A stretch of 298 bases of DNA from Escherichia coli (GTDB lineage Bacteria > Pseudomonadota > Gammaproteobacteria > Enterobacterales > Enterobacteriaceae). Shown here in pieces: positions 78-298 of this stretch (within the stretch, counting starts at the first letter, position 1; each line of letters starts with the position of its first letter). The DNA is taken from NCBI RefSeq assembly GCF_003334305.1, contig NZ_QOWS01000086.1; one strand, written 5' to 3'. The translations under genes were made by a program, and so were the position numbers. The notes below the pieces were generated by a model. That model made no database searches. It saw only the letters and a list, made by a program, of their open reading frames with translations, and was not told the origin of the DNA.

Positions 78-111
78 ATACGGGTGTTACCTGAAAGATT
101 TCTACTCGGGG

Positions 112-128
112 CCAATCTTTAAGATTGG
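112..128. repeat. Perfect 7-bp inverted repeat (ccaatct / agattgg) with 3-nt loop, overlapping the CCA of the tRNA-like fragment
   Basis: Seen in sequence: 112-118 ccaatct pairs with 122-128 agattgg, loop 119-121 tta. In the transcript it is CCAAUCU-UAA-AGAUUGG, whose first three nucleotides are the CCA of the pseudo 3' end. A second copy of aaagatt at 94-100 can pair with aatcttt at 114-120, giving a mutually exclusive alternative stem. Confidence 0.35.
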
Positions 129-143
129 TGTGTCGTGCAGGAT
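124..143 (-). repeat. tRNA-Lys 3'-end-like fragment (degenerate partial copy of T-stem 3' strand + acceptor 3' strand + CCA) inside the spacer
   Basis: Seen in sequence: 124-143 attggtgtgtcgtgcaggat versus 222-241 attggtgggtcgtgcaggat, 19/20 identical with a single t/g difference at 131. Similarity is lost beyond 144: gactcgc versus tcgaacc in the real gene. On the transcribed strand it reads ATCCTGCACGACACACCAAT, against ATCCTGCACGACCCACCAAT at the real 3' end. No intact cloverleaf can be built around it, so it is not a functional tRNA. Confidence 0.6.
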
Positions 144-168
144 GACTCGCTTCGCTTGCCCTACGGGC

Positions 169-184
169 CGTTGCTGGCGCAACG
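169..184. repeat. GC-rich 6-bp inverted repeat (cgttgc / gcaacg) with 4-nt loop
   Basis: Seen in sequence: 169-174 cgttgc pairs with 179-184 gcaacg, loop 175-178 tggc. No U-tract follows on either strand, so it is not an intrinsic terminator. Confidence 0.35.
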
Positions 185-197
185 TTATCCTTCACGC

Positions 198-220
198 TTA
201 ACATCTGAGTTTGATGTTAA
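198..220. repeat. Perfect 8-bp inverted repeat (ttaacatc / gatgttaa) with 7-nt loop, AU-rich, beginning 4 nt after the CCA end of the upstream tRNA in transcript orientation
   Basis: Seen in sequence: 198-205 ttaacatc is the exact reverse complement of 213-220 gatgttaa, with loop 206-212 tgagttt. In the minus-strand transcript this is UUAACAUC-AAACUCA-GAUGUUAA, 3 nt after the CCA of the 224-298 tRNA. Function is not determinable from sequence. Confidence 0.4.
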
Positions 221-223
221 AAT

Positions 224-298
224 TGGTGGGTCGTGCAGGATTCGAACCTGCGACCAATTGATTAAAAGTCAACTGCTCTACCAACTGAGCTAACGACC
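224..298 (-). tRNA. lysY: tRNA-Lys (anticodon UUU), 75 of 76 nt present; 5'-terminal G truncated by window edge
   Basis: Seen in sequence: 223-298 is identical base for base to 1-76, so 224-298 is the same tRNA from the encoded CCA (224-226, tgg on plus) through tRNA nucleotide 2. Nucleotide 1 would lie at position 299, outside the window. Anticodon at 264-266 (aaa on plus = UUU). The paralog symbol is tentative, as for the first copy: this is the upstream gene of the pair in the transcribed orientation. Confidence 0.94.

Follow-up and report, generated by a model that had tools for sequence, protein, structure and literature searches.

The stretch of DNA analyzed here, a window of 298 nucleotides from the lysT tRNA operon of Escherichia coli, carries a short palindrome between two tRNA genes, and the question raised by this locus is whether the palindrome is a structural element of the tRNA precursor or a chance arrangement of bases, both of which the original prediction had allowed. 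The window contains two identical tRNA-Lys(UUU) genes on the minus strand, identified with ARAGORN and Rfam. The downstream gene occupies positions 2-77 (Rfam tRNA, 79.2 bits), and the upstream gene, which sits at the position of lysY in strain K-12 and is truncated by the end of the window, occupies 224-298 (71.1 bits; annotated as tRNA-Lys in strain W2-5). E. coli chromosomes match the 298 bases at up to 100% identity, and 4272 of 5426 complete genomes contain at least 80% of the window. The W2-5 genome has the window within a tRNA operon flanked by cpoB and nadA. The original prediction had placed the palindrome in a spacer of a polycistronic tRNA operon, which agrees both with its position between two tRNA-Lys genes and with the single RNA of ~1100 nt, running through all spacers, as which the lysT operon is transcribed (Agrawal, Mohanty and Kushner; PMC4176162).

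The number of tRNA-Lys copies differs among strains. The W2-5 operon (locus L001) has six tRNA genes (four Lys, two Val) and the K-12 operon (L003) has seven; one tRNA-Lys with its spacer is missing from W2-5, consistent with unequal recombination among the repeats. Upstream of the operon, the pal-cpoB junction gave a 142-bit match to the CpoB/ybgF ICR thermometer of Rfam (RF02782; L003 490-628), which is unrelated to the hairpin studied here.

The palindrome at 169-184 reads CGTTGC TGGC GCAACG, a perfect 6-bp stem with four G-C pairs and a 4-nt loop, just as originally given. That description, however, was of the non-transcribed strand. Since the tRNA genes and their transcript lie on the minus strand, the RNA is CGUUGC-GCCA-GCAACG and its loop is GCCA, not UGGC. 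We refer to this helix as P2. Folded alone, it has a predicted energy of -7.7 kcal/mol on the minus strand and -6.8 kcal/mol on the plus strand. Dinucleotide-preserving shuffles of the 146-nt spacer held at least one perfect 6-bp hairpin in 12% of cases, and one with at least four G-C pairs in 3.9%; on chance alone, P2 is weak and unremarkable. It is conservation, not shuffle statistics, that marks P2 as non-random. The fold of the whole spacer was better than those of all 200 shuffles (z = -4.2). P2 had also been called the most GC-rich local structure of the spacer, a description that belongs instead to the adjacent GCCC/GGGC hairpin (158-168), which is 100% G+C.

A search with Rfam provided the identity of the element. 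The RtT model (RF00391) matches window positions 126-292 on the minus strand with 51.7 bits (E = 1.7e-09; gathering score 45), and the same match was recovered in the W2-5 operon. P2 aligns exactly on the central <<<<<<____>>>>>> hairpin of the model. The element lies on the same strand as, and downstream of, a tRNA gene within a tRNA operon, between two tRNA-Lys genes; its 3' end repeats the terminal ~18-19 nt of the preceding tRNA, including CCA, with one mismatch; and its central 6-bp hairpin is followed by the segment GCCCGNAGGGC within the closing helix. No homology was found to model positions ~1-60, the 5' half of the element as seen at tyrT, as that part of the alignment covers the body of tRNA-Lys. 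The 5' half of the RtT alignment has a 44-nt insertion and non-canonical pairs; the true Lys-type core starts at window position 195, and the truly matched model positions are ~66-130 only, in the 3' half. We conclude, with a probability of about 0.9, that the element belongs to the RtT family as a Lys-type member and that the stem-loop forms its helix P2, both in identity and as a structural module. The family is already known, and P2 is a real, conserved RNA structural module of RtT.

The stem-loop is not isolated, contrary to its first description. P2 is one helix of a four-helix, RtT-like element of ~70 nt (window 126-195, minus strand), and the same spacer holds two further perfect hairpins of at least 6 bp, at 112-128 and 198-220, as well as a long-range closing helix. 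This closing helix, P1, encloses the hairpins P2, P3 (GCCC/GGGC) and P4 in a cloverleaf-like topology. The P1 strands of the Lys type are GUGAAGGAU and AUCCUGCAC, the former at 187-195 pairing with the latter at 135-143 in the minimum free energy and centroid folds of the lone element. P3 (GCCC-GUA-GGGC; 158-168, minus strand), likewise predicted by the folds, was found in the Lys, Arg and Tyr types. P4 (149-155, minus strand) is shortened here to GC-GAA-GC; most copies have GGC-GAA-GCC or GAC-GAA-GUC, and the E. coli Arg-type copies have GCC-GCAA-GGC. The consensus core reads GUGAAGGAU-AA-[CGUUGC-NNNA-GCAACG]-[GCCC-GNA-GGGC]-GA in its 5' half and, after this GA, [GGC-GAA-GCC]-GAGUC-AUCCUGCAC-GACCCACCA in its 3' half.

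The 3' end of the core is a copy of the last 18 nt of tRNA-Lys including CCA (AUCCUGCACGACACACCA; 126-143, minus strand). In this pseudo tRNA-Lys 3' end, the P1 3' strand (135-143) is followed by a single-stranded tail (126-134) that terminates in CCA. The pseudo 3' end belongs to the direct repeat D2, which spans 25 nt (119-143 versus 217-241, 92% identical). At window position 132 the pseudo acceptor strand reads ACGACACACCA as opposed to ACGACCCACCA in K-12 and the real tRNA, with A replacing C in the single-stranded tail. A 28-nt linker (196-223, minus strand) joins the true tRNA 3' end to the core, and linker and core together form a cassette of ~98 nt (126-223). The linker, 25-29 nt long in 86 of 86 copies, holds the perfect 8-bp hairpin P0, with arms at 198-205 and 213-220 (minus strand; RNA UUAACAUC-AAACUCA-GAUGUUAA). 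P0 was formed in many copies and genera, with compensating stem changes (CAUC/GAUG, UGUC/GACA, CACC/GGUG) and a mean z of about -2.5. It is AU-rich and begins 3 nt past the CCA of the upstream tRNA. On the other side of the core, a basal spacer of 48 nt (78-125, minus strand) upstream of the next tRNA is the sole remnant in cassette-free genomes. The perfect 7-bp hairpin CCAAUCU-UAA-AGAUUGG (112-128) overlaps the pseudo-CCA; another E. coli strain (L005) has a similar stem with a different loop.

To follow the pairing across related genomes, as the original prediction had suggested, 80 Enterobacteriaceae loci were fetched via the neighbouring gene cpoB, so that copies were chosen independently of the hairpin. 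These loci held 118 copies adjoining a pseudo tRNA-Lys 3' end outside the real tRNAs. Alignment A1, made with MAFFT, comprised 91 Lys-type copies, 77 of them distinct. The four-helix structure was paired in 92.9% of its cells in A1 versus 27-49% for slid-partner controls, and on four of five measures none of 500 shuffles reached the observed value; the exception, further standard pair types, was reached by 136 of the 500. Pairing was kept in P2, with 99.3% of its cells paired across the 77 distinct copies and seven U.G wobbles, and 96.5% of P3 was paired. Three of the six P2 pairs showed compensatory double changes, one each in Klebsiella indica (C-G to U-A), Enterobacter sp. 10-1 (G-C to A-U) and Kosakonia oryziphila (U-A to C-G). 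Since the stem sequence is very conserved, this covariation comes from few events, each in one lineage of the MAFFT set. The P2 loop is 3 or 4 nt long and hypervariable, with its first three positions free, next to a fixed stem. P4 showed compensatory GGC/GCC to GAC/GUC changes (12 A-U cells in A1) and was 98.6% paired in alignment A2.

Single-element folds of E. coli, Klebsiella and Enterobacter copies independently gave P1, P2 and P3, with or without P4. In the minimum free energy fold of the full spacer, the P1 5' strand paired instead with a different downstream segment. We preferred the comparative structure because other copies recover it and because of the covariation. P1 carries a conserved A.G mismatch (191 with 139; A1 columns 5 and 66) in 75 of the 77 distinct Lys-type copies. 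Two GUGUAGGAU variants have U.G in its place, where the real T-stem has C-G.

A covariance model derived from A1 and searched in 84 enterobacterial loci recovered ~150 sense-strand copies adjoining Lys, Arg and Tyr tRNAs, including the longer type B copies after the last tRNA, tyrT copies and Arg-type copies. Among 133 distinct model-aligned copies, double changes occurred in 15 of 22 pairs, five of the six P2 pairs included, in an alignment that leans towards the model because it was fitted to it. The unpaired P2 cells in this set were mostly the tandem G.A of type B (CGGAGCCG...CGGCGACG). The 5' and 3' strands of P1 change with the tRNA: GUGAAGGAU/AUCCUGCAC for Lys, GGGAGGAU/AUCCUCCC for Arg and GGGGAAGGAU/AUCCUUCCCC for Tyr. 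This tailoring of the P1 5' strand to the tRNA type is the strongest single argument for a folded RNA. With ~150 copies and compensatory changes, the suggestion of a structural element of the precursor is upheld, and that of a chance palindrome is not.

The choice of strand calls for more care. Cells with G.U and with A.C numbered 25:26 over the whole structure and 8:2 in P2. A strand-specific excess of G.U was considered as proof of selection at the RNA level and rejected as too weak; given this balance, the sequences by themselves do not establish the RNA strand as the one under constraint. The sense strand is taken as the RNA from the orientation of the genes and the published Northern data.

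The cassette is not present at every locus. Spacers from tRNA-Lys to the next tRNA (n = 188) were bimodal in length, with 99 of at most 65 nt, 85 of more than 110 nt and four in between, and the short spacers corresponded exactly to what follows the pseudo-CCA in the long form. In one E. coli strain, the lysT-valT spacer has 35 nt, all of them matching the final 35 nt of the 135-nt spacer of K-12. Three of the four internal copies are missing from E. coli E69, whose spacers measure 26, 51 and 48 nt versus 135, 149 and 146 nt in K-12, and the 48-nt lysY-lysZ spacer of E69 is homologous only to window segment 78-125. From the identity of the short spacers with the segment past the pseudo-CCA, we conclude that the cassette (126-223) forms a discrete indel with the repeated tRNA 3' end at its borders. 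The indel is clean, measures ~98-100 nt and is polymorphic even within E. coli (L003, L004, L005, L006). No copy was found in 12 of the 58 loci with a complete operon; thus the cassette is dispensable.

Among 50,697 phage and 72,556 plasmid records, only mislabelled chromosomal DNA gave a match. Two candidates for mobile carriage were rejected: NZ_CP093469.1 (L084), a 14-kb Klebsiella pneumoniae "plasmid", is a chromosomal csrA-serV-argV-gshA segment, and OR850888.1 (L085), an unverified 7-kb "Salmonella phage" with an RtT-like match, looks like host chromosome. In NZ_CP093469.1 the chromosomal csrA-tRNA-yqaB-gshA segment adjoins an ISKpn18 transposase.

How does the Lys type compare with the RtT of tyrT? 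Both lie downstream of a tRNA and end in a ~18-19-nt tRNA copy with its CCA, and in both the central hairpin CGUUGC(C)...(G)GCAACG precedes (G/A)CCCGAAGGGC and a helix that closes on the tRNA-derived strand. In contrast, the Lys-type core of 70-72 nt stands against ~130 model positions in the tyrT type, and its unit of ~100 nt against 178 bp; Lys copies score 52-60 bits with the RtT model, tyrT copies 133-137 bits. The tyrT rttR has the tpr (protamine-like) ORF, whereas no such ORF was found in the Lys type, which has no ATG and in which loop indels break the frame. The tyrT element is released as an RNA, the 171-nt rttR processed from the tyrT-tyrV transcript (Bosl and Kersten 1991, as cited in PMC4986893 and PMC3318445), whereas the Lys spacer is known as precursor or trailer sequence.

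Elements of an Arg type, which E. coli K-12 and K. pneumoniae carry in their serV-argVYZQ operon, have the same architecture as the Lys type. Their P2 and P3 are nearly identical to it (AUAACGUUGC-loop-GCAACGGCCCNNAGGGCGAG), while P1 and the tail come from tRNA-Arg (GGGAGGAU/AUCCUCCC...GGAUGCACCA). They score 33.8 and 39.6 bits, under the Rfam gathering score. Arg-type copies lie at L086 1652-1722, 1925-1997 and 2340-2412 and at L084 2997-3068 and 3302-3373.

The last RtT copy of the Lys operon is of another type, B (L001 2847-2972; L003 2684-2809), in which P2 is exchanged for a longer hairpin, CGGAGCCG-loop-CGGCGACG, whose internal loop is a tandem G.A/A.G. Type B retains a recognisable 5' strand of the T-stem (GCAGGUUUGA), and it therefore resembles a tRNA T-arm whose T-loop has received an insert of ~60 nt. 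This copy, annotated as RtT sRNA (L001 2810-3002, minus strand; L003 2654-2845), is flanked by two identical operon terminators (AAUGUAAAAAAGCGCCCUAAAGGCGCUUUUUUGCUAU), so that the tRNA 3' end and the terminator form one duplicated block. In some genera (L057 and L026 are examples), two or three type-B units follow one another in tandem at a spacing of ~156 nt.

Regulatory RNAs derived from tRNA spacers, such as 3'ETS-leuZ, are by-products of tRNA operon processing that could act in trans. 3'ETS-leuZ is listed as an sRNA (PMC12306157), and its likeness to the Lys-type spacer is by analogy, in the origin as a by-product of tRNA processing only.

Annotation of the family is uneven. The W2-5 operon gave four RtT matches, of which PGAP annotates only the last, past the final tRNA-Lys, as "RtT sRNA". 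In K-12 there are five RtT matches in the Lys operon, four at tyrT (where rttR is annotated) and three Arg-type copies. The internal matches at L001 3127-3293, 3431-3597 and 3718-3886 are above the gathering score and unannotated in RefSeq, likely because the Rfam alignment overlaps the tRNA-Lys gene.

The processing of the lysT transcript suggests where P2 could act. RNase P cuts this RNA in the 3'-to-5' direction, and the Lys pre-tRNAs keep 3' trailers of up to ~150 nt, which RNase II and PNPase later remove; RNase E cleaves within the long spacers only if RNase P is defective (PMC4176162). Since RNase P leaves the spacer on the Lys pre-tRNA, P2 is part of the 3' trailer of the upstream pre-tRNA. 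We propose that P2, with P3 and P4, would nucleate a compact, self-contained trailer domain. P1 would close this domain and sequester the duplicated 3' strand of T-stem and acceptor, so that the sequestered tRNA fragment could not compete with the genuine 3' end for the tRNA body. A structured, CCA-ended domain would probably slow 3'-to-5' exonucleolytic trimming, and the domain may persist as a metastable by-product RNA, like the 171-nt rtT RNA from tyrT. This specific role in insulation and processing is put forward tentatively, and we hold it to be rather doubtful. An RtT-type P2 together with the role proposed for it is, taken whole, the best explanation of the locus and in our judgment a likely one.

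Our literature search on the lysT spacers found only the study of Agrawal et al. (2014; PMC4176162) and no experiment on the Lys-type element. In that study the spacers were probed, a stable spacer-derived RNA was not reported and RtT was not mentioned. A role in the stringent response has been proposed for the tyrT rtT (Bosl and Kersten 1991, as described in the literature that cites it). Changes in expression under stress are reported for the tyrT RtT RNA; in the available text of these sources, rttR or RtT is otherwise mentioned at the level of annotation.

Several other explanations of the hairpin were weighed. A chance palindrome without biological meaning fits the 12% of shuffled spacers that hold a perfect 6-bp hairpin, but we give it virtually no credence, since the same hairpin stands at the same position in ~150 copies from ~60 species beside three tRNA types, with compensatory changes, and matches a curated Rfam model; it is the comparative data only that rule it out. 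It is also very improbable that P2 terminates or attenuates transcription, either within the operon or of an antisense RNA. On the transcribed strand the stem runs on into GCCCGUAGGGC (sense tail GCCCGUAGGG) with no U-run, and the stem-loop followed by a U-run that defines an intrinsic terminator was not found at P2 on that strand; both the absence of the U-run and the view that P2 is not a terminator had been stated correctly in the original prediction. Furthermore, the single operon RNA crosses all spacers (PMC4176162), and the real operon terminator is positioned after the last tRNA-Lys. A consensus scan did flag the plus (antisense) strand of 169-184 as terminator-like, with the tail TTATCCTT, but 0.4 +/- 0.5 such sites are expected by chance and neither an antisense gene nor a promoter-like site was seen. 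The antisense call spans 169-193 (plus strand; tail TTATCCTTCA), and no antisense gene is known there. Nor do we find it credible, beyond a very slight chance, that the conserved segment is a small coding gene like tpr, the 29-codon "protamine-like" ORF inside the tyrT rttR. A 26-codon, TTG-initiated ORF (102-182, minus strand) does read Q-Q-R-P-V-G in the frame of tpr across P2 and P3. However, the ATG of tpr (GGAUGAG) is GGAUAAC in Lys-type copies, the P2 and P3 loops differ by 1-3 nt between copies and so shift the reading frame, and what is conserved is paired stems with free loops, not codons.

The main alternative concerns function and leaves the identity of the element undisputed. It holds that the cassette is a neutral or selfish DNA repeat, which spreads and disappears as the tRNA 3' end recombines with the copy downstream of it, and that the hairpin is kept by shared ancestry or gene conversion, not by use in the cell. 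The clean indel bounded by the direct repeat, the bimodal spacers, the copy-free complete loci and the variable number of tRNA-Lys genes all agree with this, as does a stem sequence conserved far beyond the needs of pairing. Against it stand the compensatory changes in P2, P4 and P0, the adaptation of the P1 5' strand to three tRNA types, and the position-specific P4 variants, which are kept across genera while the linker diverges. The GAC/GUC form of P4 is found in the lysT-valT copy of Escherichia, Enterobacter and Citrobacter, and this retention argues for old copies under constraint, not recent homogenisation. We regard a neutral repeat as unlikely but by no means negligible. At the attL and attR sites of tRNA-targeting integrases, the duplicated segment spans the T-loop to CCA, and an element acting at the DNA level, whether an integrative remnant, a miniature or an att-like site with a protein-bound palindrome, could account for the same span of duplication here, for a nearly identical core beside three tRNA types, each with its own tRNA 3' end, for the clean indel and for the overall lack of strand asymmetry between G.U and A.C. 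But no integrase or mobile-element gene adjoined any copy seen, the phage and plasmid records yielded mislabelled chromosomal DNA only, the sense-strand copies are all oriented as the tRNA genes, and the P1 5' strand complements the tRNA-derived strand, a feature of RNA folding that an att site does not need. This reading is highly unlikely.

Returning to P2 as a helix of an RtT-family RNA, a bolder extension may be considered. RtT-like cassettes might be cloverleaf tRNA mimics of ~100 nt that are gained and lost precisely at tRNA 3' ends, with P2 as the recognition site of a factor. P2 could be such a site for a specific factor because its sequence, and not only its pairing, is conserved across the Lys, Arg and Tyr types. 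A mimic of this kind could be a decoy or titrator of a tRNA-binding enzyme, a nuclease, a toxin or a stringent-response sensor; alternatively, it could be a non-autonomous element mobilised in trans to tRNA T-loop targets. We consider this extension a speculation with a small chance of being right.

As a discovery the finding matters little, since RtT is an RNA family with a curated model, and the annotation of this operon already includes one RtT sRNA. It does show that three internal Lys-type copies per operon have been left unannotated, and that the four-helix architecture of the Lys and Arg types is compact and better defined than one would expect from the Rfam consensus, its closing helix being tailored to the tRNA next to it. 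Strains that naturally have or lack each cassette are ready material for studying the effects of RtT on tRNA maturation and stress responses.
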